Shown one piece after another: positions 10,699-48,707 of a stretch of DNA of 64,000 bases; the first letter of the stretch is position 1, and the number at the start of each line of letters is the position of its first letter. A program made the translations under genes and the position numbers. The notes below the pieces were generated by a model, which saw only the letters and a list, made by a program, of their open reading frames with translations, did no database searches and was not told the origin of the DNA. This stretch comes from Escherichia phage I29, in sequence record ON286975; one strand, written 5' to 3'.

Positions 10699-10700
10699 TC

Positions 10701-13527: not shown

Positions 13528-13540
13528 CTATAAAAAGAAA

Positions 13541-13565
13541 GGGGCCAAACGGCCCCTTTTTTATT
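13541..13565. terminator. bidirectional intrinsic terminator
   Basis: GGGGCC-AAAC-GGCCCC hairpin flanked by A-run upstream and T-run downstream, between convergent gene ends 13527 (+) and 13576 (-). Confidence 0.7.
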
Positions 13566-13575
13566 TACCCCCTTG

Positions 13576-24406: not shown

Positions 24407-26479
24407 TTATGAGAAGTCTGGAGGGACAACATCTTCTACATACCCTTTCAGAGCAACCTGCCCCATATGAAGCACGGTAGAATCTCTGGCTGTAACAGTG
24501 ATGCTGTCAGACATTACTTGCGGGTATGCCCACACATACTGTTTTACCTCAGGGTATCTATACTCTATGGTTGCCATGTTTCCGCAGATACATCTCCATA
24601 AAAATTCTTGGTAATTCCTGGTTGGGTCGTAGCCATATACCGGAGCAAGCTCTTTACTAGGAACGAACCCTGCAAGGTATTGTATTTCAGACGGTTGCCA
24701 ACCTAACTTAACGATAGGTATGTTTACAGACTCTTTTGCCTTTTCAATACCTCCCTGCATCACCCAATCGTAGCACTCGGTGCAGAAGAAATCAAGAGCA
24801 CCTGCTTCCTTTTTATATTGGTCAGCAAGGTTCAGCTTTTGCGTAAGCTCGGTTTCCATGATGGTTGGGAAAAACAGCAAAGCTGTCATCTGAGCTGATG
24901 CAGCGTGTGCCTTTATTGCCTTTGAAATAGCCGCAATACGAGCGCCAAGCTTACCACGACAAAATGCTACATACTTGTCGTAAACACCGCCAGTTTTAGG
25001 ATCGTCAATAGTCCCAATATCTAATGCATACTCACCTGTCTCATCATAAAACGCCTGCTTTGTAGGGTAATCATAAATACAAGGTCTACGAGTATCGGTA
25101 TTGTACCACCACCACGGTTCACCAACCTGCATAATCACTGGCAGGTTGTTTCTCATAGCGGCTGATGCAAAATTCTTAAATACTGCAGTAAGGAAATTCA
25201 TACCCTCTTCAATGGTTGGAGACAGGAGGTAGCTACAGGGTGTATACCCTGTTTTAGCGTAGTTATCGTTCCAGTCTCTTTGGGTCCATTCCAACGGGCA
25301 GGCATCGCTGAAAAGCTCAAAACTTACAGATTGCATAACGTCGAAGTTATGTCGTTTGGCATTGTACATAAAATCATCATGCCATTTATAAGCTGCAGCG
25401 TTTAGCGCCCCTGTTCTGTTTATAGACCATTGGGTTCCTGACCATGTGTAGTCATAATAATGACTCATACCAACATAATGGTTTATGGTTCCGGTATAGC
25501 CCAGACGCTTGATATTGTTCAACACCCTTAAAGGAGATACGTTCCACATATCGTCATATGCGGTGCAGATCCCAACGTCGTGCTCTTTAACCTGAATATT
25601 GTTAAGTTGCATCATTTTCCAGCCTGTGTCTGGCTGGAGCAGATCTAGGCGCAACTCACACTCTACATTTTCCGTTCTCGGGTCTGTGCTATTACTTACC
25701 CAGTCTTTAGGCATAAGCGGTATTAAAATCCTTCTCACCTGTCGAGGATCAACACCCATCATGTTGTTGTTCTGATCCATCCCGACGCAGTCCTCGAAAT
25801 CAATATGAATCTCTGCAACATTCTTATCCTCTGAGATGCTGACAGCATATTGAGCTAAAGGAACATAGATGATTGTGCCATCAACAAGGTCTACAGTCAT
25901 AATCATCTTTTCAGGGGTGGAGAAGTTGCTGGCATTGGTTATTGACATTCTGAACCAAAGCTTGGTGTTTCTCATCTCATAGTGATCATCAAACCCAATA
26001 CCGAAATGGTCATACTTGTCAACTGTTTCCCAAATGCACCCAGCCATACCTCCATATGTTCTTGACACTAAACGGTTAATACAACAGTTGTTATCTGCAA
26101 CAATACAGGTACTTTCAGTCTGCTGAGTAGTTGTAACCCAATACCTTGGGTGAAACATTCTCTCCTCAACAGTATCCCAAGATATCCTGTCAAGATTCTC
26201 ATCTGAAACTATTGTACATTTCGCCCTTTGTGTTCCAATCATCACCCCTTGAGATTTTGATGAAAACTCCATAAAGAAGCTTCTTGGCAACCTGTTGGGT
26301 AATTTGTCAACAATTTCCACAGGGATCTCAATACTGGTTGCCCCAATTGGGATAGTTACATCGCCCTCAACATGATTATAATCCCTACCAGGAACGGCAG
26401 TATCCTGAACTGTTCGGTAATGAAACTGTGCAGCCATTGTAGAGTAATCACGGTAAGGTTTAAAAACAGCTGTTGCCAT
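24407..26479 (-). CDS. tail-associated protein, 690 aa, with Calx-beta-like N-terminal motif
   Basis: N-terminal VPGRDYNHVEGDVTIPIGATSIEIPVEIVD resembles Calx-beta repeat; Trp-rich central region of unknown function. Confidence 0.45.
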   Translation of the reverse strand: MATAVFKPYRDYSTMAAQFHYRTVQDTAVPGRDYNHVEGDVTIPIGATSIEIPVEIVDKLPNRLPRSFFMEFSSKSQGVMIGTQRAKCTIVSDENLDRISWDTVEERMFHPRYWVTTTQQTESTCIVADNNCCINRLVSRTYGGMAGCIWETVDKYDHFGIGFDDHYEMRNTKLWFRMSITNASNFSTPEKMIMTVDLVDGTIIYVPLAQYAVSISEDKNVAEIHIDFEDCVGMDQNNNMMGVDPRQVRRILIPLMPKDWVSNSTDPRTENVECELRLDLLQPDTGWKMMQLNNIQVKEHDVGICTAYDDMWNVSPLRVLNNIKRLGYTGTINHYVGMSHYYDYTWSGTQWSINRTGALNAAAYKWHDDFMYNAKRHNFDVMQSVSFELFSDACPLEWTQRDWNDNYAKTGYTPCSYLLSPTIEEGMNFLTAVFKNFASAAMRNNLPVIMQVGEPWWWYNTDTRRPCIYDYPTKQAFYDETGEYALDIGTIDDPKTGGVYDKYVAFCRGKLGARIAAISKAIKAHAASAQMTALLFFPTIMETELTQKLNLADQYKKEAGALDFFCTECYDWVMQGGIEKAKESVNIPIVKLGWQPSEIQYLAGFVPSKELAPVYGYDPTRNYQEFLWRCICGNMATIEYRYPEVKQYVWAYPQVMSDSITVTARDSTVLHMGQVALKGYVEDVVPPDFS

Positions 26480-27165
26480 TAACCCTCCTGTCTAGTTGCG
26501 TTTACTGTAATACTTTCACAATAAATGGTTGTGGTGTCCCAATCAGGTCTTACGTCAGGAACATATAGCAAAGTAGCCAGCCCACCAACTCCGAATTGGC
26601 TTTCTTCCCACACTGATCCGAAGCCAAGAGCTGTAGAGTCCCCTTCAAAACCAAAAGCTTGCCCTTGCGATTCTGTAAGACGCAAATGACAAGGTAATGG
26701 TAGCATATCTAAGATCTGATCGATAGACTGCAATATGTCAAAGCAAGTTTTTCTAATATTTATGTCAAACCTGAAGTTGTCTCCTTTCCACGTATCGAAA
26801 TTGTCTCTTCCGAACAATTGTCGCAAGGTGGAGATGACATCTTCGCGAGTCCCGCCCCTTGATGCTGCGGCCTGCTGAATAATTAGTGTGGCACGAAAAT
26901 CAGCATCTGAAAGTCCATTCCTAAGAATACCAAGTTGATTACCAACTTCGTCAAGGTATCTTCCGCTGGCATTGTTAAGCAATCTTCCTTCAGCCAAACC
27001 TACCAGCATCTTATCAACATCCTCCAACCTTTTAAGGTATACGGTTAAGAATGTGACTAAATTAACCTTCTCAGCCAGAAAATCTCCAGGTAGGTAGTCA
27101 AGACCTCCCTGAACAAAATCTGGCAGAGCGTGGATGTGGTTAACATCCGACTTAATCTCTGCCAT
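26479..27165 (-). CDS. hypothetical tail/baseplate protein, 228 aa
   Basis: ORF in baseplate/fibre block, start overlapping upstream stop. Confidence 0.45.
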   Translation of the reverse strand: MAEIKSDVNHIHALPDFVQGGLDYLPGDFLAEKVNLVTFLTVYLKRLEDVDKMLVGLAEGRLLNNASGRYLDEVGNQLGILRNGLSDADFRATLIIQQAAASRGGTREDVISTLRQLFGRDNFDTWKGDNFRFDINIRKTCFDILQSIDQILDMLPLPCHLRLTESQGQAFGFEGDSTALGFGSVWEESQFGVGGLATLLYVPDVRPDWDTTTIYCESITVNATRQEG

Positions 27166-27176
27166 ATCTCGCCGCC

Positions 27177-27554
27177 TTAAATAGTTTGTTGGAAAGTTAT
27201 ATTACTTTCGTCGAGGTCAAACACCTCGGTCATGTTCGCAACAATATCGTTTGTAGTGTAAGCTTCATCAGAAGCTCCTACGGATTTAACTTGAATTACC
27301 AGTCTATTAAATCTGCCTATTGACACAGCAGCAGATGCAGCACCTACCAATTGGATATTATACAACGTATCTGCAACATCCAGTCCGTTAACAACCTGCA
27401 AAAGAGCCTCTATAATGGCATCTTTTTCGGTTGTTAACGGACTGGATGTTGCAGATACGTTGTATAATATCCAATTGGTAGGTGTTTGCCTTGGAGTAAT
27501 AAATTCTTTCAGTTTGACCGTCAGATGTAGTGACATCGTAGAAAATATTACCAT
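27177..27554 (-). CDS. ORF fragment, possibly C-terminal part of the split baseplate-J-like gene
   Basis: +1 frame relative to the upstream ORF, overlapping it by 167 nt; reads in frame through both arms of the 56-bp inverted repeat. Confidence 0.35.
   Translation of the reverse strand: MVIFSTMSLHLTVKLKEFITPRQTPTNWILYNVSATSSPLTTEKDAIIEALLQVVNGLDVADTLYNIQLVGAASAAVSIGRFNRLVIQVKSVGASDEAYTTNDIVANMTEVFDLDESNITFQQTI
27341..27484. repeat. perfect 56-bp inverted repeat with 32-bp spacer
   Basis: 27341-27396 is the exact reverse complement of 27429-27484; flanking bases 27340/27485 and 27397/27428 do not pair. Confidence 0.9.
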
Positions 27555-28668
27555 AAGTCCTGTTCGTACAGGCTATAGTTTGGTAAAGTGCTTGGCAAAT
27601 GTCTTCCGTTGCACCACCAAACACAACCACTTGGAACTTGTAAGGAGGTATACCTTTAGCATCAGTTTTATCGGTGTTGTTGGAGAACACTCTCACTTTC
27701 TCAACACCTTTCACCTCGCTTACAGCGCTAAGGATTGCAGGACGGGTAGCCTTAGATGTTAACTGTTTTGTGCTGGAAGCTCTTAAGCGATACTCTGAGT
27801 CTTTCTCAACATCCCTGCCCTCATTGAATCTTTCTCGGTTGGTAAGCTTGATAAATCCACTAGGAGTAGGTGACATTGTTGTCACGGTTTCTGCTTCTCT
27901 TGACAGCTCACCAGCCTCGTTAGCGATAACATCCAGTGTGATAGTTCTTTCCCCTACAATCGGGGATACTCTGAAATCTACCCTGCTGTTAAGCCCAACT
28001 TGATCAAGATTCGAATTGTACCCTATCCACAACGTTCCTGTCAACATATCGATCTGAATCAAATCGTCGTTCAACAGGGTTGTATTATCGACAATGAATT
28101 GCTTAATCTCTCCGTAAAAGCTTGGCAAATCAGAAGAGTCCAGAGACTTATCTGTTAAAACCAGGCTTTTTGTTTTGATACTTCCATCTGTCTGGTTGGT
28201 AATTTGGAAGTTGTATTTCCCAATCCTTAGGTCTGGAGCATTTATTCTGTGAGCAATAAGATTCCCTGCTACTTGCACATCGTTGCTAAGAACAAAGTTG
28301 CCACTGTCCAGCGTATAAGTTTTGGAATCATAAATCATATTGTACGGCACAGTTGTGTTGATTGTCAACTGGCAGGTACCTGATGATTTAGAACGGCCTC
28401 TTCGGTAAATACCCTGTCTTCCAAGAAGCTCATCTAGGTAAATACCTTCTGCCCCATACAGCGTCTGTGATGCGTATACAGATGCTGCCATAAGAATAAG
28501 TTGATACTCTCGCTCGTTGAAGATAGTGGTCAGCTTATCTGCAACGGAGTTACTCTGTACGTTGAAGTTTTCGCCAAAAGCACGGATCAGGCTTTGCTTA
28601 GTTTCAACGATTAGGTCATTTAGGGTTGGTATAACGAAACCAGCCTCTGTCAATCCATACTTAGCCAC
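27388..28668 (-). CDS. baseplate J-like protein (apparently truncated at the inverted repeat)
   Basis: N-terminus MAKYGLTEAGFVIPTLNDL... follows the pattern of baseplate J (gp47/gpJ)-family proteins; stop codon lies 6 nt into the second repeat arm. Confidence 0.55.
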   Translation of the reverse strand: MAKYGLTEAGFVIPTLNDLIVETKQSLIRAFGENFNVQSNSVADKLTTIFNEREYQLILMAASVYASQTLYGAEGIYLDELLGRQGIYRRGRSKSSGTCQLTINTTVPYNMIYDSKTYTLDSGNFVLSNDVQVAGNLIAHRINAPDLRIGKYNFQITNQTDGSIKTKSLVLTDKSLDSSDLPSFYGEIKQFIVDNTTLLNDDLIQIDMLTGTLWIGYNSNLDQVGLNSRVDFRVSPIVGERTITLDVIANEAGELSREAETVTTMSPTPSGFIKLTNRERFNEGRDVEKDSEYRLRASSTKQLTSKATRPAILSAVSEVKGVEKVRVFSNNTDKTDAKGIPPYKFQVVVFGGATEDICQALYQTIACTNRTYGNIFYDVTTSDGQTERIYYSKANTYQLDIIQRICNIQSVNNRKRCHYRGSFAGC

Positions 28669-28737: not shown

Positions 28738-28766
28738 ATAAAAATAAACCCCGCCGAAGCGGGGCT
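28738..28766 (-). terminator. intrinsic terminator, UUCG-tetraloop hairpin
   Basis: Minus-strand CCCCGC-UUCG-GCGGGG (28749-28764) followed by UUUAUUUUUAU, directly after stop of J-like fibre gene. Confidence 0.65.
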
Positions 28767-28773
28767 TTAAAGG

Positions 28774-31700
28774 TTAGTCGTGAGACTCGTTCCAAGGTCC
28801 CTGGAAGCTTGAGTTAGAACGACTAACGATCACAGTGGGACAGGAGATTGTGACACCTGTCACGCTCGACGTTGACCACGGTGTGTAAATCTCGATAACA
28901 ATGTCTATAGTTTGTTCACCCAGACCTGTTATCCCTACCGCACACATGCCGTTGTTGTCGTTAAAATACTTCTTGCCAGCAAGGATCTGATGACCAGCTA
29001 TCCATGCATTCAGTTGGGAGCCGGCAAGAGTACCGTTCAGTTTAAAGAAGAATGTTACGTTCTTACCCTGACCTGAAACGTTATCTACGTATCTCCACCT
29101 CCAACGGCAAACCCTTTGCTGGGAGTTATATACTGGAGCACAATCTCCGTAAGTCCTGTGTGCAACAATCGCACCTTCGAACTGGTTAGCACGGATAACA
29201 GAAGCTTCTACACGACCACGGAAGGTACCTCCGGTTGCATCTATGGTGCCTCTAAAGCTACCATTATTGGCATAAACATCACCACGGAAGGTACCACTGG
29301 TGGCGTTAACTGCCCCTGTGAAGTTACCAGAACTGGCGTTGATGTTACCTTTCACCCACACATCCATAAATTGGGCGTGCCCGTTCTTGTTAATATACCA
29401 ACCGTAGTTATGGTACCCGTTGCTATCGTAGTTGTTTGACGAAATTTCTTGTGCGATCTTGGCAGAGGAGATCGTGCCATTCTCTATAAAAGCGTCTTTC
29501 AAGAACGCTTGGTTATTCTTGATTGCGAAAGCAAGGGTTGCTGTGCCGTTACCAGGGTTGTACACCGCAAAGTTGTTTGCACTAACCATAAAGTATGATT
29601 GAACTTGTCCTCCAGACCCCTCCATGCCCAGCTGGATACCTGCCACATATTTATTACCATGGCTGTCAACCTGAATCTTAGCCCCCCACTGAGCATCTAT
29701 TTTACCCTCAAGTGTTGTTACAGCTTTAGAGGTATTAGATACTGTAGCCCTAAGCTCATCAATATTACCCATTTCGTCAACAATTTCTTGTTTTGCAGAG
29801 GTAAGTTCTTGACGGATCGCTGTGGCTGTATTATTAACAAGATCAACTGTTGTACTATTAGTTTCTTGAATAGATGCTTGCAGATTGGCAACCTCTTTCT
29901 GCACATCATCTTCCAGCTTGGTGATCTTCCCTGTAGCTGCCACCAGATCCTGCTTAATAGCTTCCGTTGTCTTATTTAGCAGGTCGGTTGTTGCCTTGTT
30001 GGTTTCTTGAATAGAGGAGTTAAGTTTGCTCTCAGTGTTCTTCAACTCTTCCCGCAGAGTACCTTGAGTTGCAGTTATTTGCTCACTCAATGCTTGAGTT
30101 TTACGATTAACAAGATCAACGGTTGATCTATTTGTTGTCTCGATTAGTGACCCAAGCCTACCAGACTCTGCTGCAAGTTTATCGTCAAAGGATTGCTGAG
30201 CTGCTACCAGCTTACTGTTAAGGGCAGAAATTTCTCCATTAACCCCTGTAAATTTTTCTGTCGTCTCTCTGACAACACCCTCTATTGTATCTCCAAGCTC
30301 TTCAAAAATGCTAGTAACACGGTCATTGACTGCACCAACATTTTTATCCATTTCCTTGACTGCATTATCGAGATTGGCGGTAAGCTCTTTATAAGTCTCT
30401 GTCTTTTTGAACTCAGCATCAATCTGCGGCATAAGATCTTCTATGGATGTGTAACAGTGGGCTGCACACTCCACAAAAGCAGATGAACCAAAAGCATTTG
30501 TTGTCCTGATATACCAATAATAAATCTTATCGTTCTGCAGACCTTCAGATGTCCAAGTTGAACCAACACCCATACGAGTGGCTTTTGAAGTAACGGTTGC
30601 ATCACTGGTATCTGGCAATCTTGTCATCCCAGATGTCCAAAAGTCATATTGGGTGCTTACACTGGCCAAGGCTCTGCTATGCGGGATCAGGGTAATAGCA
30701 AAGTATCCCTGTTTAACTTCTACAGAAACCGGAGCCTCAGGTGCCTGAATGTTAAACTCACAGTATGCTTCTGGAGATACACCACCTTTATAAGATGTTG
30801 CAACAACAGTGGCTGTGTAGGAACCTTTAGTCAGACCTTCAACACGGACAAACTGCTCAACTGTCTGCGCTGTCCAGACAATCTCTCCGTTTTTCCTGAC
30901 CTGCACAATGTTTTGAGCATAAGTCCCAACGTTGTCCCAAGCCAAAACACCGTGAGTTACTTCTCCAGCTTGGAGAACGGAATATCTGAAGTTTTGCGGT
31001 TGAGCTACACCAGATGGAGATATCGGAATATCTACATCGCCAGAATCCGGAAGTTGCCCTGTGGCATCATTCCACTCTTTAGCATCTTGACGAAGTTTTA
31101 CCTTGACACCACCCTTTTTGGTAAACTCCCATTCAAGAACTCTCATTTCTTGGCCTACTATACCAATACTTGGGAGGTCCATTGTAACGTAACGACCAGG
31201 TTTAAATTTGAAACCTCGCATATTGCAGGTGACTTCAATAATCCTGCCAGCTCTGGCACGTCTTAGGAAGATTGCAGAAACACGTTGAGCTTGATAAGGA
31301 CTGGTAACAAAGCGATAGTCTATATCGATTATCTTTCTTTCTCCATCCTTCCCTATCCACTCTGGGACAAACACTGATGGAAAATCTGTTTCAGAATACC
31401 CTTTGGTCGGACTAGTGAATCTGCCAGTTATTGTGTTGGATCTTTTGTCAAATGAGGCTTCCGGATAGATCTTGACCTCACCACAGACACAATCCTCACT
31501 CAGCGTCATTGTTGCCGGGCCATAGTATGCACCAACCAGCAAACCATACTTACCAGCTACATAGCTGAGATCTGCGCCACAAGCTTTCAGCATCTCTGCC
31601 ATAATGCTTGCCGGAGCCTCGTCCATGTCAAACTCGCCATTAATGGTGTATCGGCGCTCACTGGTTCCGTCTGCGTTTTTTACCGCCTCGTCGCATATGT

Positions 31701-32373
31701 TAGCAGCCTCCTTGAAGGACTCCCAGTTGATGGTTTCGTCAGGACATTTAAGGTACGTTCTTAAATAGTCTAGAATCACCAAGGCCGCGTTATTGGTATA
31801 CACCTCTTTACTGATGCGAGGATCATAGCATTTTTTACCAACCTTAACGAGTGTAACGTTTGGCAACCCAAAAGGAAACTTGTTAGGGTCAAACCTGAAG
31901 CTGGCACGTAGCCAACTGATCCCTCTACCTATCATGTCAGGTGACCATGATGGGCAGTGTGTACCCATGAAAGGATCAGATGTTTTTCTGTCGTTATGTA
32001 GCTCCCACGATACCAGATCTCCATACGAGGAAATAGGATTACCGTCGATGAGTATGTCCTCTATACCTTCCAGAGGATGATTAGCAAGAACAATGGCACA
32101 ATGGAGGGTTCTGTCTCTGTCCTGCTCCAAAAACGCAAGCAGTCCAGACGTGCGTGTCTTCCCATACACTACAGAGCAGGGTGCAGCAGAAGATCTGAGA
32201 AGCTTTTGTCTATCTTGCTGACTTCTGTAAGATTTGTTGCCCTCAAAAATCTTATCCAGAGTTCTGGTGGTAACAGTGTTCAGGCTGTCAGCCAGAGCTG
32301 CCTTGGATGCGTTCCAGTCATAACTTGAAGATCTTGCAGAAGCAACGATGTTATCAATCATTGCAATTGGCAT
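28774..32373 (-). CDS. host-specificity J-like central tail fibre protein, 1199 aa
   Basis: Large ORF preceded by three small tail-tip assembly-type genes; N-terminal region resembles lambda J-type proteins; central coiled-coil-like segment. Confidence 0.5.
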   Translation of the reverse strand: MPIAMIDNIVASARSSSYDWNASKAALADSLNTVTTRTLDKIFEGNKSYRSQQDRQKLLRSSAAPCSVVYGKTRTSGLLAFLEQDRDRTLHCAIVLANHPLEGIEDILIDGNPISSYGDLVSWELHNDRKTSDPFMGTHCPSWSPDMIGRGISWLRASFRFDPNKFPFGLPNVTLVKVGKKCYDPRISKEVYTNNAALVILDYLRTYLKCPDETINWESFKEAANICDEAVKNADGTSERRYTINGEFDMDEAPASIMAEMLKACGADLSYVAGKYGLLVGAYYGPATMTLSEDCVCGEVKIYPEASFDKRSNTITGRFTSPTKGYSETDFPSVFVPEWIGKDGERKIIDIDYRFVTSPYQAQRVSAIFLRRARAGRIIEVTCNMRGFKFKPGRYVTMDLPSIGIVGQEMRVLEWEFTKKGGVKVKLRQDAKEWNDATGQLPDSGDVDIPISPSGVAQPQNFRYSVLQAGEVTHGVLAWDNVGTYAQNIVQVRKNGEIVWTAQTVEQFVRVEGLTKGSYTATVVATSYKGGVSPEAYCEFNIQAPEAPVSVEVKQGYFAITLIPHSRALASVSTQYDFWTSGMTRLPDTSDATVTSKATRMGVGSTWTSEGLQNDKIYYWYIRTTNAFGSSAFVECAAHCYTSIEDLMPQIDAEFKKTETYKELTANLDNAVKEMDKNVGAVNDRVTSIFEELGDTIEGVVRETTEKFTGVNGEISALNSKLVAAQQSFDDKLAAESGRLGSLIETTNRSTVDLVNRKTQALSEQITATQGTLREELKNTESKLNSSIQETNKATTDLLNKTTEAIKQDLVAATGKITKLEDDVQKEVANLQASIQETNSTTVDLVNNTATAIRQELTSAKQEIVDEMGNIDELRATVSNTSKAVTTLEGKIDAQWGAKIQVDSHGNKYVAGIQLGMEGSGGQVQSYFMVSANNFAVYNPGNGTATLAFAIKNNQAFLKDAFIENGTISSAKIAQEISSNNYDSNGYHNYGWYINKNGHAQFMDVWVKGNINASSGNFTGAVNATSGTFRGDVYANNGSFRGTIDATGGTFRGRVEASVIRANQFEGAIVAHRTYGDCAPVYNSQQRVCRWRWRYVDNVSGQGKNVTFFFKLNGTLAGSQLNAWIAGHQILAGKKYFNDNNGMCAVGITGLGEQTIDIVIEIYTPWSTSSVTGVTISCPTVIVSRSNSSFQGPWNESHD

Positions 32374-32810
32374 TAATACCTCCAGACATCAACAACGATA
32401 GAATCTTTCATGTCGAACATAAAGACCCCTTTATCACCTTTCGCCCAAATCTGGTTGTTCCAGAACACACCAGCGGTGAGCCCGTTCAGACCTTCGAAGA
32501 TAACAATATCGCCACGCTGAACCTGTTTAGGAGTATCTAGTCGAGTCATAAAGAGATCAAAAATAGTAGGCAGGTGTGTGGTTTTGAAACGGAGCATGCA
32601 CCATCTTTTGCTTTCCAACTCTGTTTTATACGTTCCTTCGAAGTTAGAAAGAAAATCTGTTCCGTATTGGGCATCAACACACTTAGCTGCAAAGGTGCAG
32701 CAATCGTGGAATCCCCATTCAAAAGGTATGGTGGCCTCTTCGTCAAACACTCTCCACAATCTTTCTTGCCAATCCACTAAACGAGGGTGTGTGCTCATTA
32801 AACCTCCCAA
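32373..32810 (-). CDS. tail-tip assembly protein, 145 aa (possible NlpC/P60-like)
   Basis: Position immediately upstream of J-like gene; FHDCC motif; assignment by synteny with lambda/GTA-type tail tip modules. Confidence 0.35.
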   Translation of the reverse strand: MGGLMSTHPRLVDWQERLWRVFDEEATIPFEWGFHDCCTFAAKCVDAQYGTDFLSNFEGTYKTELESKRWCMLRFKTTHLPTIFDLFMTRLDTPKQVQRGDIVIFEGLNGLTAGVFWNNQIWAKGDKGVFMFDMKDSIVVDVWRY

Positions 32811-33364
32811 ATGATCGGGCGGCTCGCCACCTGATCCACATATTTAAAAAATCTGTCATTATCGTTTCTTGAGCTGTGGCTTTCCTCCGTGTACCGATAA
32901 GGAAAACCTCTTAACCAGCTGTTGAAGATGGAAGAGATGGATATGGACAAAGCACTATTCTCACCTGTCTGAATAGCCATATCTGTTATAAGTCCGTCAA
33001 ACAAGCCATTAGTTGTAACAGGTAGACCATTCTCCATAGCGGTAATGTACAACGTGGCACGACAACCAGAATACTCCGTCTTCAGCAGATCACCCACATA
33101 CTTGGGATCAAACCCGTTTAATGTTGCTACCACAGATCCGAAGTTGGTGGCATCTTTCTCAGACACAGCAGTTAATGTTGCTGATCCACCTATCCCTATA
33201 AAATGTTGCCCCTCAATTACTACAACACCAGTGCCTGAGCACACTCTGACAGTTCCTGTCGGTAGCTCCAGCTTTGCAGCAATTAAGATCTCAACACCAT
33301 CAAGCTCCAGCTTTTCAAGAAATAAATTATCTAATGGCGCTCTGATCATCTTAAAAATCCTCAA
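32798..33364 (-). CDS. tail-tip assembly protein, 188 aa
   Basis: Second of three small genes upstream of the J-like gene. Confidence 0.35.
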   Translation of the reverse strand: MRIFKMIRAPLDNLFLEKLELDGVEILIAAKLELPTGTVRVCSGTGVVVIEGQHFIGIGGSATLTAVSEKDATNFGSVVATLNGFDPKYVGDLLKTEYSGCRATLYITAMENGLPVTTNGLFDGLITDMAIQTGENSALSISISSIFNSWLRGFPYRYTEESHSSRNDNDRFFKYVDQVASRPIIWEV

Positions 33365-33941
33365 AGAAGTTGATAACTATATTATCACCTTTTTGCATAG
33401 CATCGACTTTTTGCTTAATTTTATAAATATCTCTGATATGAAACCTACCCTTCGGAGATTGAGTTATTATCTTCATGGTGTCCCCTGCGGCAATAGGTTT
33501 TCTAAGTCTTGGAGATATGCCTATAACAGCAGACCCAACACCATCACTACGCACTGGAGCTGTTACCACTTTCAACTCATCGTTCACAGATATTTTATCA
33601 CCAGCTCTGGCTATGTCTCTGTTTGGCTCCCACCCGACCGTCTTCAAAAAATCGTCGTTACCAGTAGGCCCAAGGGCGATTGGCTCGTTAGCTGTTACAG
33701 AGTGACCGTAAGTTTTAATAAGAAAGATGTTCCCATCTTTATACACCTGATCAACAAAGCTCTTAAGCTCTAGCAACTGTGACTCGCTGATATTGGAGAC
33801 CGTCAAAGTGCCTTTCCAGTTAGGTGTGGCATAGGTTACTTTTTGCGTTTTACCTGTAAACGGACTTTTAAACGTAACAATATCTGCCAGCAGCTCCAAT
33901 CTAATATCTGGAAGGTATCTAGGCCTTTCCCATAAAAACAT
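33351..33941 (-). CDS. tail-tip assembly protein, 196 aa
   Basis: First of three small genes upstream of the J-like gene. Confidence 0.35.
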   Translation of the reverse strand: MFLWERPRYLPDIRLELLADIVTFKSPFTGKTQKVTYATPNWKGTLTVSNISESQLLELKSFVDQVYKDGNIFLIKTYGHSVTANEPIALGPTGNDDFLKTVGWEPNRDIARAGDKISVNDELKVVTAPVRSDGVGSAVIGISPRLRKPIAAGDTMKIITQSPKGRFHIRDIYKIKQKVDAMQKGDNIVINFFEDF

Positions 33942-34000
33942 TGTGCCTCCAGGTTAAACAATCATGATAGTTATTTTACCAGATTTTGAGTTAATACGCA

Positions 34001-34033
34001 ATACAAACAAAAAGCCCCCGCCGAAGCGAGGGC
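34001..34033 (-). terminator. intrinsic terminator, UUCG-tetraloop hairpin
   Basis: Minus-strand GCCCUCGC-UUCG-GCGGGGGC (34014-34033, one G-U pair) followed by UUUUUGUUUG, after stop of the 1266-aa fibre gene. Confidence 0.65.
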
Positions 34034-34040
34034 AAAACAG

Positions 34041-37000
34041 TTACTTCAGTTTCTCTTGCAACCCAGTAACAACCTCTGTCAATTTTTTAACCTGCTCCTC
34101 AAGGGCGGTTATTTTATCGTCCTGTTCCCTGCAAACCTGGACAAGCAAGCCTGTTACAGCTGCATAGTCAACGTTATAGAATCTTTCCTCAGTCATCAGA
34201 GGGGTGCCGTCTTGAGTAGGCCCTGGAACCTCTTTCCTTTGCACGAAAGACCCAACCGCTTCTGGTAATGCTTCCATAACTTCTTGAGCAATTACCCCTG
34301 CGTAAGGCATACCATTCTCTTTTAAAGTATAGGTATAGCCTTTCATCTTCCGGATAGCTTCTACAGCGTTAGGTATGACCTCGATATTATCCTTCAGGTC
34401 ACGGTCAGAACTTTGACTAACAGTGGTGCATTCTACTGCACCATTGACAGCAAAATATCTTGATTTGGCCTCATCTGTCTTGGCCCCGCAATGGAATACC
34501 CAGTTGGAGAGTGTTGAGTTATCACTTATCTGGAACTCAAGCACATTCTTCCGGTCTGCACCATTGCCCCAATAATATAACCTACCTGTATTAGCAGGTA
34601 TGTTGGAACTGTTGCCAACAGTAGCTCCGCCGCCAGTGTGGATTATAAACTCTGGGTCAAGATTCGAACCTTGAGTTTTCAAAGTGATCCCTTTGCCACC
34701 AAGCTGCTGCCAAGGTCCCCATGTGAAAACACTACCTATTGTTGTTCCATAACGCAGGAATTTTTCCCCAAGATATGATACATATTCCTGCACACAGCTC
34801 TCAGGCACGTTGGCGTAATTCCTGTACACAATAAGTGTACCTGCCTGAGCACAAGGGTAGTTTCTCTCCGGAGTGGCCTGAGCATTGGCCTCTTGGTGAT
34901 AAAAACCCTCTCTATCCCCTTTGTAGTCGTTAAGGTCATTAGTTCCCAACCCTTGACCACGGTGCTGAATAACTTTGTTCCACGCTCTGTGGTTTCCCTG
35001 CTCTATGGAACGAGTGTACAGCTGGTCTAAACGACCTGCCATCTGGAAAGCGTAGTTTCCAGAAAAACCAACCGACAACCCTGCTACAACCATGGAACCT
35101 TCAGGTCCGTTGACGTTACCAGCCATTATTTTAGAAGGGTTGTTATTTCCGAACTGGTTGTTCCAGTCTGCACCTGTGTGGCATACAAAACCACCAGGAG
35201 CTGAGAAAGTGCCATCTTTGTTGAAGTTGTAGAATTTGTGAGCAGAACCTACAACATCACGAACAATAACTTGACCAGCCTCTGGAGTAGATCTGAACTC
35301 TGCCTGTCCTTTGAGACCAGCACCATTACCGCATTTAGAGGTAAACGTACCGTTAGTCAGATCCTCTGTCCCATCTGATGCACACTGGAAGCCTGCATTA
35401 GAGAATAACGCCTTTCTAGGACTGCCGTAGCACAAATAGTTAAGACCGTCTGCCCATAGCTCGACTTTTGGCATATTCATTTTGCTCATCACAGCATAGC
35501 GTTCAGCAGTGCCTATATAGTGCCACTGTGTGCCGCCACCAGTGTAGAACCCTGAAGTCCCTTTGAAGTCAACAATAGGTCTGGTGTTGGTATTATTATC
35601 TCCAAGAACAGCAAGATTCAAATCTGCTGACTGGAGAGGTGCAACGAACTTAACACCGTCCTGATTGTCTGTTACAGAGCCAACCTGGTAATCTTGCTCC
35701 CTGGTAAACACCTCGACAACATTTCTACTTGCGTATATGCTGACAGGGAAAGCACGCGCCTCTGCATAGAAAGCAACATATTCTTGTTTACCCCTTGTTG
35801 GAGCAACCATCCCAAGAAGTGCTTTTTCATTCTGGTAGAAATTTACTACCCCGTAGAAAGAGTCTCCTCTGTCTGTCCAACCACCAGTTCTATAGTGACA
35901 CTGTAAGGTCGCACAGTTCATAGGGTCATTTCCAGATGAAGACCTGGTGACTATAGTAATATCTGTACCTGTCGAAGGGGCGTAATACGGATCTGTTCTA
36001 ACGATGATTGGGTAGTATTTCCCATCTTCCATCCCTGCGGTTCTTGGCAGTGTTAAGAAGTCTTTTACACCTGCTGCTATAGGAACTTTGAACAGATTCT
36101 GAGCATCTGCTAAAGTTGTAGCCCCAGTGCCACCTGCGGCTTGAGGTAGAGGTTCCCACTTGGCCTTCCGGTTGTTATAAACACCCCATTCAAGCGTTCC
36201 TTCACCTTGCTCGTCCATACCGCCATCCCAGACAACCATCTTGGCGGCTTTCTTGGACCCCCAGAAGCCTCTTTCTGCCCCTGAACTACGGATCCACTCT
36301 CCAAGTCCCCAGTTTGCCAGCTGACCGTTCAGATCACCAACCTGCATATATTTAGGACAATCTAAGACCCCATCCTCACGGAAGCCTAAATAGCTATGAG
36401 TTTCAGATCCTTTTGCGCCTTTGTGCAGGTGGATTGTCAACCAAGCCTTATTGTCGTTTCTTACCTCAGAGTAGATCCTATACCCATGCTCAAGGACACC
36501 GTCAGCGCCGTATTTATCCCCATGGAGAATACCTGATGGAGACTTAACCTCAGAAGTGCTTTGAGATAGGTAAAGGTGCCCGAAGGTAGGGGTATTTCTA
36601 GACCCGAGACCGATGTGCGATCTAAAGGTATCATCGTTACGAGGTCTGACCATCGGCTGCCATGCAGTCCACTGATTTGTGTTGGCCTGATAGGTTCTCA
36701 AATACCAAACATCTACGTTAGAGAATGGATAGTATTCCTGACGACAACCTGTACCGCCGTTAGCATTGTTCTGCCAGACAATCAAGTGACCAGCACCAGA
36801 ACCTGCAGGGTAACCATTTGCCTCAGTTGCATAAGCAGTCATCGGCTGGTAGTATACACCATCCTGATTACCAGTCAAGTTATTGATATTGAAATTTGGC
36901 TCAAGGGCTGCACGTTGCTTATAGAAAGCACCGATATTGATACGGACTCCAGCGGCATCTCTAGCCCCTGTGCCGCCTTGCTCTATAGCAAGAGGTTGCC

Positions 37001-37841
37001 ACGAAGCTGTTTGTTGGTTCCACATACCCCAACGGCCTGTTGCATCAAGCTGCAAGTACCCTGCCGTATTTAAATCATCTCCAGCACGGATAACTGTTCT
37101 TGTTGGGTTGTTTGCCTCTAGGCGTTTAAATTCATCACGAAGTGCTATTCTTTTCGTTGTTGCTACACCGTTGGTTACTGCAATGGTGTACATGGCTCCG
37201 GTGGTAGCGCCACGGAAAATACCATCAACAGTTGTAGTATCACGACGAGATACCACACCGTTCAGAAATTTTTCACCAGCTGCTACAGAAGGGTAGTTGG
37301 TAGTTCTTCCCTCTTCAATAACTGCAGGGCCAACAAAGTTATCAAGGTGAATAACATCGCCTACAGTGTGCACTGTACCAAAATCTACACGCTGTGCAAG
37401 TGCTTTGGCATCGTTAGCTGTCTGAACAGTAACATCCATTACATCCTGGACAGACTGCCCTTCGGCTGTCATGATCATAGATGCGCCAATGGTAGATTCC
37501 AGCTCCTCCCTTAAGGACGGGTCAGTATATACCATCCATGCAGCATCAGTGATCCCACCATCGGAGTACGGTGAAGACAGTGCAGGAACAGTGTGCGGAA
37601 ATTCGCCTTTCCAACGTAGGTAGAGGTCTTCCTCTTCGAAGTAGGCAAAATCCATTGGGCCGTTTAACTTACCACCTTCCTTAAAGGAGATTACATGAGA
37701 AACAGTCCCATCAACATGGACAACATCGCCAATTTTTACACGACGGGTCAGGTCTGGTTGTTGAACAACCAGGTAATCATCCTCTGTCACTGCGGTAGTG
37801 GCAGGAAGAGATTCAATTCTGACAACTTTAATATCAGCCAT
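34041..37841 (-). CDS. tail fibre protein with C-terminal intramolecular chaperone (S74-type)
   Basis: C-terminus DRDLKDNIEVIPNAVEAIRKMKGYTYTLKENGMPYAGVIAQEV matches the self-cleaving chaperone domain of tail fibres/endosialidases; Gly-rich shaft. Confidence 0.75.
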   Translation of the reverse strand: MADIKVVRIESLPATTAVTEDDYLVVQQPDLTRRVKIGDVVHVDGTVSHVISFKEGGKLNGPMDFAYFEEEDLYLRWKGEFPHTVPALSSPYSDGGITDAAWMVYTDPSLREELESTIGASMIMTAEGQSVQDVMDVTVQTANDAKALAQRVDFGTVHTVGDVIHLDNFVGPAVIEEGRTTNYPSVAAGEKFLNGVVSRRDTTTVDGIFRGATTGAMYTIAVTNGVATTKRIALRDEFKRLEANNPTRTVIRAGDDLNTAGYLQLDATGRWGMWNQQTASWQPLAIEQGGTGARDAAGVRINIGAFYKQRAALEPNFNINNLTGNQDGVYYQPMTAYATEANGYPAGSGAGHLIVWQNNANGGTGCRQEYYPFSNVDVWYLRTYQANTNQWTAWQPMVRPRNDDTFRSHIGLGSRNTPTFGHLYLSQSTSEVKSPSGILHGDKYGADGVLEHGYRIYSEVRNDNKAWLTIHLHKGAKGSETHSYLGFREDGVLDCPKYMQVGDLNGQLANWGLGEWIRSSGAERGFWGSKKAAKMVVWDGGMDEQGEGTLEWGVYNNRKAKWEPLPQAAGGTGATTLADAQNLFKVPIAAGVKDFLTLPRTAGMEDGKYYPIIVRTDPYYAPSTGTDITIVTRSSSGNDPMNCATLQCHYRTGGWTDRGDSFYGVVNFYQNEKALLGMVAPTRGKQEYVAFYAEARAFPVSIYASRNVVEVFTREQDYQVGSVTDNQDGVKFVAPLQSADLNLAVLGDNNTNTRPIVDFKGTSGFYTGGGTQWHYIGTAERYAVMSKMNMPKVELWADGLNYLCYGSPRKALFSNAGFQCASDGTEDLTNGTFTSKCGNGAGLKGQAEFRSTPEAGQVIVRDVVGSAHKFYNFNKDGTFSAPGGFVCHTGADWNNQFGNNNPSKIMAGNVNGPEGSMVVAGLSVGFSGNYAFQMAGRLDQLYTRSIEQGNHRAWNKVIQHRGQGLGTNDLNDYKGDREGFYHQEANAQATPERNYPCAQAGTLIVYRNYANVPESCVQEYVSYLGEKFLRYGTTIGSVFTWGPWQQLGGKGITLKTQGSNLDPEFIIHTGGGATVGNSSNIPANTGRLYYWGNGADRKNVLEFQISDNSTLSNWVFHCGAKTDEAKSRYFAVNGAVECTTVSQSSDRDLKDNIEVIPNAVEAIRKMKGYTYTLKENGMPYAGVIAQEVMEALPEAVGSFVQRKEVPGPTQDGTPLMTEERFYNVDYAAVTGLLVQVCREQDDKITALEEQVKKLTEVVTGLQEKLK

Positions 37842-41154: not shown

Positions 41155-41871
41155 TTAGTTAACATCAATAGCACGACCAGACTGGTTGGCAATAGCCTCA
41201 TCATTGGAGGTAGCAATAACACCAGAGTATTCGCGCTCATCTGGAGCAAGAGTCCAGGTATTGCGGTTAATGGTTTGTTCTGCCTCGGTCATCAGCAGAT
41301 CTTTATCCTGAGTCAACAGAGAGCCTACAGGGATAGGGTTTTCCATCTCAGGACCAGCATACTGGTTCCACCATGTGGCATCTCCGGTTCTAGGCAATCT
41401 GAAGTTGATCAGGTAGTACAGTTTATTGGCCCACTTAATCCAACCTTCATCATCACAGAGAGAGGTTGTCCCAGAATCAGGCTGTGGGTAGGTAAACTGA
41501 TCAAGACCTACGAAAGCCAGCCTTACAATCTCGTTCTCTTTGGTAACAACCTCAAAGAACGCTTGGTATGTTCTCGATCTTCGATCCATGGTAGACTGGA
41601 AGTTTACGATGTTTAGCACATCCGGCTCTTGTCTTGCCACTTCCATAATCTTGTTATCAAGAACAGTCTTCATGACCTTCTTACTGAGAAAGTCCATATA
41701 AGGGAAGCCAAACAACTCGTCAAAGTACCAGCTCCCCTTCCACGTATTAAACCTCATCCACAAGCGCTGGCGCAGACTTACCTGGTTTGAATCTATCAAC
41801 TCAAGACCTTTGTCTATCGCCAAATCGCCTGTCTGTGGGTCCATCAATATATCACTATAAAGCGTAGCCAT
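41155..41871 (-). CDS. baseplate-associated hypothetical protein, 238 aa
   Basis: Located between spike-like gene and fibre genes. Confidence 0.4.
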   Translation of the reverse strand: MATLYSDILMDPQTGDLAIDKGLELIDSNQVSLRQRLWMRFNTWKGSWYFDELFGFPYMDFLSKKVMKTVLDNKIMEVARQEPDVLNIVNFQSTMDRRSRTYQAFFEVVTKENEIVRLAFVGLDQFTYPQPDSGTTSLCDDEGWIKWANKLYYLINFRLPRTGDATWWNQYAGPEMENPIPVGSLLTQDKDLLMTEAEQTINRNTWTLAPDEREYSGVIATSNDEAIANQSGRAIDVN

Positions 41872-41883
41872 GAAAGCCCTCTA

Positions 41884-42561
41884 TTAGTGCGGTCCACTTG
41901 TCTCGCCATCAGGGCAAGAGTGGGTATGACCTTTATATTCTGCATAGAATGAATCCAAATCCACACCAGCAGCAGTTATAATTCTACCAGATGGGTCTAT
42001 TGTGGCACCATTCATTCTGATATTTCCATCCACAGCAGCTCGCAAATTGGCAGCACCGTTAGTGAAAGAAAACTCCCCGCTGCTGTCGCACCGTAATGTC
42101 CCACCCGGTGTTTGAAGCTCAAAATCTCCAGAAGGTGTCAGTTTAAAATAGACCTTATCATTCCATAACTCTACGTTATCAGGATCGATCTGTAAAGCGT
42201 TTGAGTCTGAATGAACAGAGGTTATTGCCCACCCAGGAAACAGGCCGTGAGTTTGTTGATCGTCGTTATTGTTTTCATTTCTCTCTGAAAACTGCAATCC
42301 TACAACATCACCAGCTTTAATAGGAAGTGTTAACCTTGCCTTTCCACTGTTTGCAGACATCACTTGAATTGGAACGTCATAGATAAGAGGGTATCTCTCC
42401 ACATCTCCATCATCAAACGTGGTTTCAGCTATTGGCTGCACGGCTGCAGAAGGGATACTGTAGTCTACACTGACAACTCTGGCCCTGATACTGGTGTGGT
42501 AGTCCCTCATTATTTTTTCTATAAAGGATCTTACAGCAGCATCTTTCCTATTTATTGCCAT
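41884..42561 (-). CDS. baseplate central spike protein (gpV/gp45-like)
   Basis: 225 aa; beta-rich with C-terminal apex motif KGHTHSCPDGETSGPH resembling metal-binding tips of P2 gpV / Mu gp45-type spikes. Confidence 0.55.
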   Translation of the reverse strand: MAINRKDAAVRSFIEKIMRDYHTSIRARVVSVDYSIPSAAVQPIAETTFDDGDVERYPLIYDVPIQVMSANSGKARLTLPIKAGDVVGLQFSERNENNNDDQQTHGLFPGWAITSVHSDSNALQIDPDNVELWNDKVYFKLTPSGDFELQTPGGTLRCDSSGEFSFTNGAANLRAAVDGNIRMNGATIDPSGRIITAAGVDLDSFYAEYKGHTHSCPDGETSGPH

Positions 42562-43565
42562 TATACCTCCTCAGTTTTGTCAACAACCCCACCGACTGTT
42601 TCCCCAAGGCCAAGCTCTGTGATGTAATCACCTCCTTCTATGGTTCCTTTATGATGCACCGTGATCACCTTATAGAAGCCTGTATATTGCTTGCTTTTAA
42701 GATAAATAGTGGACTCTGGGAGGATAGCTCCGTTAAGGCATGTGGTTACAGTAAGGCCAACATCCTCTCTCGGGTTTTTCTTTTTCTTTTTAGATGTCGA
42801 ACCACCTTTGGCAGCAGCTTTAGCTTTTCGTTTTTTAGCAGGTTCTGGATTTTTAGGGGTAGGAGATCCGTGCATCCCAGACTCTGCACTTATTTCAAAC
42901 ACAGAGTCTTTGAACCTTTTTCCAACCTTGGTCCAATACAAAGCCCCATCCTGAACGCTAAATGTGGAGTTGGTCAGCCTTGCAAACCTGCGGAGGTTCT
43001 CTGCAGTGTTTCCAGAGAAAGCCATAGAGTATTGTAAAGTCTGGTTTCCAAAACCAACAACCCTACCTTTTGGCAAGTTCATATCCTTCAGTAGGTCATT
43101 AAGCACAGAGTTCAGAGGCGTGCCTTTCTGATAAGATCTTGTGCTTTGGCACTTAATGATGTTCTCAGTGCCATCCCCAAAGATGAACTTAGTTTTTCTG
43201 GTAGGGCCTTCCCATCTGTCTTCAACAAACTCCACAGTTCCGGAGAATATCAACTGGTTCTCATTATCATAGCCAGCTTCAAACATAACTGCAAGGGCAT
43301 CAGCCTGATGCATATCCAAGTAGTTAACTGTATCGTCAGACAGGTTGTAAACTGTCACATAACCTTTGTTTGGCTCTTTGGTATTGTCCTTTTGTATGTC
43401 AAACTCTATATTGGCAGCACCAGTGTCCGAGCTAACTTCATAAACTCCGGAATCACTCTCCCCTTTCTTTTCAACAGATTTTGGGATATTGGTTTTTGAT
43501 TTGCCGCCATGTTCTACAGGACGACCAAACAATAATCGCCATGTTCTACGTCTGTACTCTGCCAT
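42561..43565 (-). CDS. baseplate/tail protein, 334 aa
   Basis: Lys-rich linker KKRKAKAAAKGGSTSKKKKK between two domains; between tape measure region and spike. Confidence 0.4.
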   Translation of the reverse strand: MAEYRRRTWRLLFGRPVEHGGKSKTNIPKSVEKKGESDSGVYEVSSDTGAANIEFDIQKDNTKEPNKGYVTVYNLSDDTVNYLDMHQADALAVMFEAGYDNENQLIFSGTVEFVEDRWEGPTRKTKFIFGDGTENIIKCQSTRSYQKGTPLNSVLNDLLKDMNLPKGRVVGFGNQTLQYSMAFSGNTAENLRRFARLTNSTFSVQDGALYWTKVGKRFKDSVFEISAESGMHGSPTPKNPEPAKKRKAKAAAKGGSTSKKKKKNPREDVGLTVTTCLNGAILPESTIYLKSKQYTGFYKVITVHHKGTIEGGDYITELGLGETVGGVVDKTEEV

Positions 43566-43945
43566 TATTCTAACCCTTGCTGTTCCTTGTAAAGATCAAC
43601 CGGGGTGCCGTATACAAGTTGTAGCTCAGATCTCGCCCCAAGGTTATATCTTCCAACCCTGCCCCAATATTGATCGTCTTTAAACGACAGCGCCATCAGT
43701 CTACCTTTCGGTAAATCATCTCTGTAATGCAGTCCGTCTAAAATATCTTGACAAGCTGTTACTTTTCTGGTTACTAAAGGACTGTCACCTACTGGACCAA
43801 GAGATAACCACCAGGACTCATCCCTCTCATTCCATTGCATACGCATTTCATACGTTTCATTGTCTAAAACAACACGCATGGTTTGATCAGGAAAGCCGTC
43901 AATGTCCCACACAAAGGTGATTATGCACCAATCTTTAAGCTCCAT
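43565..43945 (-). CDS. hypothetical tail protein, 126 aa
   Basis: ORF with start overlapping upstream stop in tail block. Confidence 0.4.
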   Translation of the reverse strand: MELKDWCIITFVWDIDGFPDQTMRVVLDNETYEMRMQWNERDESWWLSLGPVGDSPLVTRKVTACQDILDGLHYRDDLPKGRLMALSFKDDQYWGRVGRYNLGARSELQLVYGTPVDLYKEQQGLE

Positions 43946-48233: not shown

Positions 48234-48707
48234 TTAGATAATACCTGCAAGACCTGCGAGGCCAGTGAGAGCACCAGTAATGTTATCACGGTTGAGCCAT
48301 GCATCCAGAATACCGATATCCCAGTCCAGTTGACCTACTTCGGTTCCGTAAGTCAGGTCAGGCTGTTTCTGGATCCAACCGATTGTGGAAATACCAGGGC
48401 CCTGGCTACCTTCCAGCAGAACCGGGAAGAATACCAGGCCAGTAATAGATGCCTGTTTCTGCCAGTCAGAAAGGTAAGCGTTCCATACAGAAGTGTTCTG
48501 CAAAGACACAGTCATAACACCAGATTGGTTACGGGACAGAGCTGCAGACATTTCACCATCCACACCAACGTGAGGATAAATGTTGTCTTCGTTTCTTGAA
48601 ACAACAATCTTGGTGTCAGCAGCGAAGCCAGTGACACGCTGCTGCATCAGATACAGTTTGACCTTTTTAGGGTCATACGCATAAGGAGTTAAAATTTGAG
48701 TTTCCAT
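48234..48707 (-). CDS. tail tube protein
   Basis: 157-aa ORF immediately downstream of sheath gene. Confidence 0.6.
   Translation of the reverse strand: METQILTPYAYDPKKVKLYLMQQRVTGFAADTKIVVSRNEDNIYPHVGVDGEMSAALSRNQSGVMTVSLQNTSVWNAYLSDWQKQASITGLVFFPVLLEGSQGPGISTIGWIQKQPDLTYGTEVGQLDWDIGILDAWLNRDNITGALTGLAGLAGII

Follow-up and report, generated by a model that had tools for sequence, protein, structure and literature searches.

A siphophage-type tail tip cassette among the contractile tail genes of Escherichia phage I29

Among the genes for its contractile tail, Escherichia phage I29 has a cassette of four genes whose relatives outside its own genus are tail tip genes of siphophages. The stretch analysed (the window) comprises 64,000 nt of record ON286975, and all positions are coordinates of the whole stretch; the cassette occupies 33941-28774 of the minus strand as four co-directional, tightly packed open reading frames (ORFs) for a distal tail protein (Dit), a hub protein, a weakly peptidase-like protein and a J protein (Table 1). 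Database comparison assigns the phage to Vequintavirus, i.e., the rV5-like E. coli myophages with genomes of ~137 kb. A sequence-only reading of the window had described three small genes followed by one for a 1199-aa J-like protein, which the ORFs and their Pfam and PHROG matches confirm, and had placed them alongside a sheath, a tube, a gpV-like spike and a baseplate-J-like protein, all of which are indeed present, the spike being of the phi92-gp138 type and the last a Baseplate_J wedge protein. We conclude that the cassette is an insertion specific to the genus, and we favor the view that its products now form an accessory receptor-binding fibre.

Origin and conservation of the cassette

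All four ORFs can be taken as real genes because they each have strong PHROG or Pfam matches, are 97-99% identical to annotated genes and have ratios of nonsynonymous to synonymous substitution rates (dN/dS) of 0.02-0.05. This level of identity extends to annotated genes in ~118 Vequintavirus records, and the cassette was found in every one of them. The genes are already annotated publicly ('distal tail protein', 'tail protein', 'central tail fiber J'); in the literature searched there was no paper on the siphophage origin of the cassette, on the loss of the hydrophobic N-terminus of J described below, or on the puzzle that results. Outside Vequintavirus, the identity of Dit and of the 188-aa hub protein (p188) falls at once to less than 60%, and the sampled matches all lie in genomes of 40-83 kb, those of Queuovirinae and of Providencia, Serratia, Klebsiella, Vibrio, Pseudomonas and Acinetobacter phages; the sampled homologues of J likewise all come from genomes of siphophage size. 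In phages CAjan, FritzHoffmann, VLCpiS6a, Vibrio 1240 and PSA-2T, the tape measure gene is followed by genes for Dit (~195 aa), a tail protein (~190 aa), a protein of ~135-150 aa and J/Tal, and in IME_AB3 two other genes separate the tape measure gene from the cassette.

The nearest relatives are found in the Queuovirinae (Seuratvirus CAjan gp15-gp18; Nonagvirus FritzHoffmann bas20_0016-0019), which have the four genes in the same order, with sizes of 194/194/144/1040 aa against 196/188/145/1199 aa in the window. In both, the stop codon of the gene for the third protein (p145 in the window) abuts the start codon of J, and in the window no separate gene I lies between the two. BLASTP comparison with CAjan gp15-gp18 gave identities of 32% for Dit, 40% for p188, 45% for p145 and 54% for J (E 1e-27 to 0), the J alignment beginning at residue 48 and taking in the hub region (aa 48-754). 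However, while the cassette of the Queuovirinae directly follows the tape measure gene of a non-contractile tail, that of I29 is detached, flanked by hairpins and located in a myophage, with 11 kb and ten genes (an 81-aa ORF, six baseplate and three fibre genes) between the tape measure gene and Dit and with a sheath gene in the same window. In addition, its Dit is disproportionately diverged, the coiled coil of its J is longer, the last ~155 aa of J are unrelated, and no receptor-binding protein or lipoprotein locus lies downstream of J. On these comparisons, the cassette belongs to the siphophage tail tip class and, within it, to the Queuovirinae type. The lambda or gene transfer agent (GTA) style proposed by the sequence-only reading was right in its core, given the collinear siphophage homologues and the pb9 and gpL/g13/pb3 folds described below, with the caveat that the nearest relatives are Queuovirinae and T5-like phages rather than lambda or GTAs in the strict sense.

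The sister genera give the opposite picture. Seunavirus has a collinear orthologue for every tail gene from the sheath to the last fibre except a 690-aa protein and the cassette, and the phi92-like Justusliebigvirus has collinear orthologues for most tail genes of the window. In tblastn searches of the Seunavirus and Justusliebigvirus tail regions, none of the four cassette proteins found a match, whereas their neighbors all did in Seunavirus, again except the 690-aa protein, and most did in Justusliebigvirus. The virion table of W70 lists a phrog_6 baseplate protein beside a phrog_4233 one, without a J module (PMC11370258), and the baseplate of phi92 resolved with cryo-electron microscopy (cryo-EM) is complete without any Dit- or J-type part (PMC13450770). 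Because of the homology and synteny with siphophages, the lack of a cassette match in collinear sister genera and the terminator-like hairpins on both flanks, we conclude from the sequence comparisons that the cassette came from siphophages and was inserted in this genus specifically. Vertical inheritance was rejected on synteny, the sister genera being collinear without the cassette, and gene order, which had been suggested as a check, sets it with the siphophages.

Of the two flanking hairpins, the upstream one, between the gene for the 1266-aa fibre and that for Dit, has an 8-bp stem with 7 GC pairs and is followed by TTTTTGTTTG; the downstream one, 7 nt past the J stop codon, has a 9-bp stem followed by ATTTTTAT. 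A candidate promoter for the cassette, followed by a GGAGG ribosome-binding site, was read by eye and lies under the scan threshold, and we treat it only as a lead. Another promoter-like sequence precedes the wedge gene. In the annotation of phage Gotham, predicted terminators and promoters stand at the corresponding places, including the upstream hairpin and the cassette promoter.

Compared with three other Vequintavirus genomes, the four cassette genes have dN/dS values of 0.017-0.053 (0.022-0.025 for the hub and sheath initiator genes), which indicates a functional cassette under strong purifying selection; a relic or pseudogene was rejected on the same values. The arrangement is also kept in a divergent Vequintavirus lineage of 76% DNA identity, in which amino acid identity is 83% for Dit, 87% for p188, 61% for p145 and 84% for J. 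In rV5 (PMC3606486), gp37, the 1279-aa J allele of that phage, was detected in virions by mass spectrometry, and the authors noted a COG4733 and a MuSO2 hub-like match for it.

Predicted architecture of the four proteins

J is the protein most readily assigned, with Pfam matches to Phage_Tail_Tip (2e-38), Ig_J_second (2.5e-30) and Ig_J (3e-5), a match to phrog_31 'central tail fiber J' (2.5e-164) and, among PDB entries, matches to lambda J (2e-27), the F2-pyocin fibre and T1 tip proteins. It has the hub domains II-IV, the Ig/FN3 domains and the central-fibre tip domain of a J/Tal protein. Allelic variation of J within Vequintavirus is limited to the coiled-coil shaft, at about aa 650-920, and includes a length difference of 80 aa; between the window and Gotham, the hub and tip domains are ~99% identical. 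For the C-terminal ~155 aa (residues ~1040-1199), neither a homologue in CAjan J nor a match in Pfam or the PDB was found, and they could be a built-in receptor-binding domain; a TonB C-terminal domain was rejected there, the match (E 0.3) not being significant.

For the three small proteins, neither single sequences nor profiles of 6-7 members gave anything significant against the PDB; therefore, the structures of two of them were predicted with AlphaFold2 (AF2) from alignments of homologues. In hhalign, the family alignments showed no significant likeness to the individual gpM, gpL, gpK and gpI sequences of lambda. A first, word-indexed search for p188 homologues had returned 3 proteins only, and an alignment query was required. 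Dit, which matches phrog_1302 'distal tail protein' (5e-50), was modeled with a predicted local distance difference test score (pLDDT) of 69, and in Foldseek and structure comparison its predicted fold matches T5 pb9, of the two-domain type, so that the cassette includes a distal tail protein with a predicted Dit fold. The genome holds two Dit-class proteins, the native tube initiator (43958-44842, Pfam Dit_like 2e-22) and this siphophage-type one (33351-33941).

The second protein, p188, matches phrog_2048 'tail protein' (8e-68). Its model (pLDDT 69, predicted template modeling score 0.65) was matched by Foldseek to the N-terminal hub domain of T5 pb3 (3e-7), the 272-aa JBD30 chain 8rk3_O (2e-5), lambda gpL (7e-5), the 292-aa chain 6tba_7A of the gene transfer agent RcGTA (3e-4, template modeling score 0.50), which we take to be g13, and the gpL-like protein of T1; the wider gp27/VgrG/Mu gp44 class ranked lower. 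It would thus be the separate hub-domain-I protein (gpL/g13 type) of the cassette. In lambda gpL, residues 1-166 form hub domain I and the C-terminal domain holds a 4-Cys [4Fe-4S] cluster (PMC10721106). No conserved cysteines or Cys cluster, and so no C-terminal domain of this kind, occur in the p188 family. A profile built from J residues 1-520 matched residues 390-776 of pb3 from T5/DT57C (7e-18), the tip protein of T1 (3e-13) and lambda J (1e-3), and this match, together with the fold match of p188, indicates that p188 and the N-terminus of J would be a single pb3-like hub split between two genes, an arrangement shared with lambda and RcGTA.

T5, whose pb9 is the best structural match for Dit and whose pb3 matches both p188 and J, differs in having its hub in one chain, and its tip (pb9, pb3 and the central fibre pb4) seals the tube and retains the tape measure protein pb2. 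T5 is not known to have an NlpC/P60-like small gene at the equivalent position. With lambda (gpM, gpL, gpK, gpI, gpJ) the cassette shares the logic of the order, i.e., Dit, hub-domain-I protein, a small protein in the NlpC/P60-type position and J, and the J proteins have Ig_J, Ig_J_second and Phage_Tail_Tip in common, but there is no sequence-level likeness for the three small proteins; the window has a Dit with an extra C-terminal domain, a gpL-like protein without the 4-Cys iron-sulfur domain, and no gene I. The layout of RcGTA (g12 Dit, g13 hub, g14 peptidase, g15 megatron) is comparable, with a peptidase-like protein of ~150 aa before the J-type one, but the likeness lies in folds only, and p188 lacks the C-terminal half of 6tba_7A. 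Concerning the families that had been named for these ORFs, the GTA-linked DUF2460, Phage-tail_3 and PF09931 (presumably DUF2163) found no match in the window proteins (E <= 0.1 for J; E <= 10 for the small proteins), and PF09931 and NLPC_P60 appear below threshold in some homologues, PF09931 in one p188 homologue at E 0.065. The families actually matched are sister families of the same functional classes, and none of the ORFs was assigned to an unrelated family.

The third protein, p145, matches Pfam DUF6950 (4e-33), and NLPC_P60 matches stay under threshold in three of the seven family members (best E 0.037); MepS/Spr matches in a PDB profile search, at E ~1, are not significant. The family has an invariant F-x-W-G-x-x-D-C-C motif and no conserved His, and the D-C-C aligned with the 'TDCY' cysteine motif of lambda gpK without significance. 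Its size and its position between the hub protein and J fit the NlpC/P60-type slot of lambda gpK or GTA g14, and CAjan gp17, 45% identical, is annotated 'putative peptidase'. We would therefore describe p145 as a small DUF6950 protein that is, weakly, NlpC/P60-like. Between the two Vequintavirus lineages (32373-32810 against 10553-10978 of our record L014) it is 61% identical, compared with 83-87% for its neighbors, with the D-C-C motif kept.

One change in J lies at its N-terminus. All six siphophage homologues examined, VLCpiS6a being counted after correction of its start codon, begin with a hydrophobic segment of ~45 residues rich in Gly, Ala and Ile, which is polar in Vequintavirus: the mean Kyte-Doolittle value of aa 1-45 is 0.01, against 0.65-1.6 in the homologues. 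A transmembrane-like N-terminal window occurs in all of the 28 nearest of 150 database J representatives, and the median best 20-aa Kyte-Doolittle score over the 150 is 1.94. The polar segment is constrained, since both of the divergent Vequintavirus lineages have the same residues 11-46. The lambda plug, which supports the tape measure protein, is a hydrophobic part of gpI and presumably makes contact with the outer membrane, like the plug of T5 pb3 (PMC10721106). That the siphophage J N-termini are a fused equivalent of gpI stays a lead, because neither a local hidden Markov model of the J N-terminus against lambda proteins nor hhalign with gpI gave a significant likeness. The 'baseplate hub protein Tal' of VLCpiS6a (7988-8222 of our record L005) is annotated with a start too far downstream; an in-frame upstream ATG adds 78 residues, which include the ~45-residue hydrophobic segment typical of the J family.

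Divergence from CAjan is graded along the complex, identity declining from 57% in the J hub to 46% in p145, 40% in p188 and 31% in Dit. When siphophages are compared in pairs, Dit shows about as much divergence as the J hub (e.g., 69.6 vs 68.9% and 39.6 vs 34.2%), and therefore the side facing the tube is the one that changed most. Together with the polar N-terminus of J, this suggests that the cassette no longer caps a DNA tube.

Possible roles of the complex in the virion

The explanation that we regard as fairly probable is that the four genes encode a siphophage tail tip complex that no longer closes a DNA tube and acts as an accessory receptor-binding fibre, docked through a remodeled proximal face. 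A Vequintavirus ancestor would have gained a complete tail tip (tail initiator) cassette horizontally from a Queuovirinae-like siphophage of the T5/lambda class, and the cassette would have entered, as a separate transcription unit, between the genes for a fibre and for the Baseplate_J wedge. Assembly would follow that of siphophages, with a Dit ring on a trimeric cone of p188 and the N-terminal hub domains of J, from which the Ig domains, coiled coil and tip domain of J would project as a fibre, and the DUF6950 protein may be an assembly factor or a minor component. Within the multi-fibre apparatus with which Vequintavirus adsorbs, the complex would be one of the accessory fibres for receptor binding, having lost its plug and conduit function and docking at the baseplate periphery, or on another fibre, through Dit and the polar N-terminus of J. 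Since the phage has a tube initiator, hub, spike and tape measure protein of its own, we infer that the complex no longer closes a DNA tube; a search elsewhere in the window for a docking partner of siphophage type (the C-terminus of a tape measure protein, a tail terminator or a tube protein) found none. Consistent with a fibre, allelic variation of J is confined to its shaft, and the BASEL authors counted the J gene among the variable large lateral fibre genes, although they called the assignment of genes to fibres unclear (PMC8594841). RBPseg grouped the Vequintavirinae protein with a siphophage central fibre (PMC12143355). The neighborhood and baseplate core are shared with the 'Swiss army knife' apparatus of phi92 and Vequintavirinae relatives, in which several fibres and spikes sit on the wedge (PMC13450770; PMC8594841), but phi92-like and Seunavirus phages lack the cassette and no fibre localized so far has a Dit/hub base.

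Several points weigh against this explanation. For a Dit ring with six subunits, the baseplate periphery offers no obvious place to dock, and cryo-EM of Bas49/Bas54 placed three fibres only, none of them the J fibre, one ending in unassigned density (PMC12143355). In the rV5 virion data set of 19 proteins, gp37 is supported by 4 peptides (4.2% coverage), which is thin, and no evidence for gp38-40 was seen in the portion of the protein table that was covered (PMC3606486). Both AF2 models, of Dit and p188, are of moderate confidence, the cassette promoter is a by-eye match, and the identity gradient could come from a mosaic donor instead of adaptation.

Alternatively, J alone would be a virion fibre, the three small proteins being non-structural helpers or chaperones kept for its folding or trimerization. 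The gp38-40 result would fit this, lambda gpK was not found in virions and is considered non-structural (PMC10721106), hub-like N-termini are noted by RBPseg to need partner proteins for proper trimerization (PMC12143355), and p145 evolves fastest (61% vs 83-87% between the two lineages). Yet Dit and gpL-type proteins are structural in every solved siphophage tip, purifying selection on Dit and p188 is as strong as on J, and absence from the rV5 data says little because only 19 proteins were detected, so that we consider this version rather improbable. A central position would suit the design of the complex, which calls for a 6-fold/3-fold axis, as the tail offers one at its centre only: a single Dit-hub-J complex below or around the native spike and hub would sense the receptor and have to open or detach before the spike fires. 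The Dit ring, which normally stacks on a tube-like ring, could there meet the native tube initiator with its Dit_like domain, and conservation toward siphophage J is good in the J hub domains (57%). However, spike and hub each have a full-length orthologue (about 60% identity) in cassette-less Seunavirus and show no extra docking domain; the tip of the phi92 spike bears an iron-binding apex that serves piercing (PMC13450770); J has lost its plug-like hydrophobic segment; and no central fibre was reported in the C6 baseplate maps of Bas49/Bas54, in a paper that was not looking for one (PMC12143355). An axial fibre is unlikely in our view, and the related idea that the complex caps the spike as a siphophage-style receptor sensor, opened or shed before sheath contraction, is quite unlikely; if true, it would make a genuine hybrid of both tail mechanisms.

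The sequence-only reading had suggested a mosaic baseplate, and the place of the cassette, surrounded by baseplate and fibre genes and with the wedge gene next downstream, speaks for a native, vertically inherited core part that replaced standard ones. That idea is largely refuted and has very little probability left: the standard core is complete (tube initiator, plug, hub, spike, sheath initiator, and the Baseplate_J wedge with its partner), sister genera have the same collinear core without the cassette, the sampled relatives of its proteins outside the genus are all siphophage proteins, and it has no conserved collinear orthologues in the tail regions of the related contractile-tailed Seunavirus and Justusliebigvirus. 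Since the native core is complete and common to cassette-less genera, the cassette is an accessory insertion and not the replacement of a baseplate part, and 'mosaic' stands at the gene level only.

Siphophage tail tips and myophage baseplates are usually seen as alternative solutions made of homologous parts, but one genus keeps both, with the second, siphophage-type tip under strong selection. If the accessory fibre is indeed a free-standing adhesin, a whole tube-capping machine can move between tail types as a unit and be reused as a fibre, a natural example for the engineering of portable receptor-binding modules. It would also account for one fibre gene of rV5-like therapeutic and biocontrol phages not yet placed in the virion, and raises the question of what a Dit ring and hub need for assembly without the tape measure protein.

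Gene neighborhood and other observations

Every structural gene in the window lies on the minus strand, and those around the cassette are given in Table 1 in the order of transcription.

Table 1. Cassette, contractile tail genes and associated signals in the window
Feature	Position	Strand	Remarks
Sheath	48718-50094	-	Contractile-tail component
Tube	48234-48707	-	Contractile-tail component
Chaperone	Between tube and tape measure protein genes	-	
Tape measure protein	44947-47283	-	Myophage type
Small ORF	Directly after tape measure gene	-	81 aa; annotated in both relatives
Tube initiator	43958-44842	-	
Plug	43565-43945	-	
Hub	42561-43565	-	
Spike	41884-42561	-	phi92-gp138 type
Sheath initiator	41155-41871	-	
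Sheath initiator, C-terminal extension	41155-41258	-	Residues ~205-238
Three fibres	Between sheath initiator and cassette	-	222, 865 and 1266 aa; the 1266-aa one at 34041-37841
Intrinsic-terminator-like hairpin with T-run	34014-34033	-	Upstream cassette edge
Candidate cassette promoter	33973-34001	-	TTGCGT, 17-nt spacer, TGgTAAAAT (extended -10)
Ribosome-binding site	33950-33946	-	GGAGG
Dit	33351-33941	-	196 aa; rV5 gp40 equivalent
Hub-domain-I protein (p188), predicted	32798-33364	-	188 aa maximal ORF; relatives annotate 183 aa, ATG 33349
DUF6950 protein (p145)	32373-32810	-	145 aa maximal ORF; relatives annotate 141 aa, ATG 32798
J-type hub/central-fibre protein	28774-32373	-	1199 aa; rV5 gp37 equivalent; polar N-terminal segment 1-47, hub domains ~48-490, Ig/FN3 493-652, variable coiled coil ~650-900, lambda-J tip domain 878-1017, C-terminal ~155 aa
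J, C-terminal ~155 aa	28774-29253	-	
Intrinsic-terminator-like hairpin	28746-28767	-	Downstream cassette edge
Promoter-like sequence	28730-28702	-	TTGACT-17-TAAAAT
Baseplate_J wedge	27177-28668	-	
Inverted repeat in wedge gene	27341-27396 / 27429-27484		56-nt arms, 32-nt spacer
Wedge partner	After wedge gene	-	228 aa; followed by more fibres
Wedge partner, C-terminal extension	26479-26565	-	Last ~25 aa
'Lateral tail fiber'	24407-26479	-	690 aa

The 690-aa 'lateral tail fiber', which is missing from the Seunavirus compared, has an orthologue in phi92-like phages (42% identity). Besides Calx-beta, it matches Pfam NCTSP_N (9e-13) and TIM-barrel_NCTSP (4e-80), which are domains of non-contractile tail sheath proteins, and a PDB chain from phage N4 is named 'Non-contractile tail sheath'. 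Repeated shaft domains of the 1266-aa fibre, whose gene lies just upstream of the cassette, recur in gp20, the lateral tail fibre of CAjan (13467-16550 of our record L003; 35-39% identity, E 4e-29), a likeness that may reflect a wider exchange of host-recognition genes or just mobile fibre domains.

Short C-terminal extensions of the sheath initiator and of the wedge partner are both conserved in the divergent Vequintavirus lineage and missing from the Seunavirus orthologue sequences; for the sheath initiator, tblastn alignments to Mydovirus, Certrevirus and phi92-like records end before the extension. Both are possible docking sites for genus-specific parts. In the wedge gene, a perfect inverted repeat, whose second arm turns 41 nt of native sequence into 42 nt (net +1 nt), splits the gene into ORFs of 426 and 125 aa. 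It was found in none of 108 related genomes, where the gene is intact with 496 codons, and seems to be either an artefact of the assembly or the reads or a rearrangement that is lethal. Among the ~118 matching records, ~18 (MG0656xx) are titled 'Campylobacter phage' and hold E. coli Vequintavirus sequence at ~97-100% identity; the one record opened, A135, is marked UNVERIFIED, and the host labels are probably wrong.

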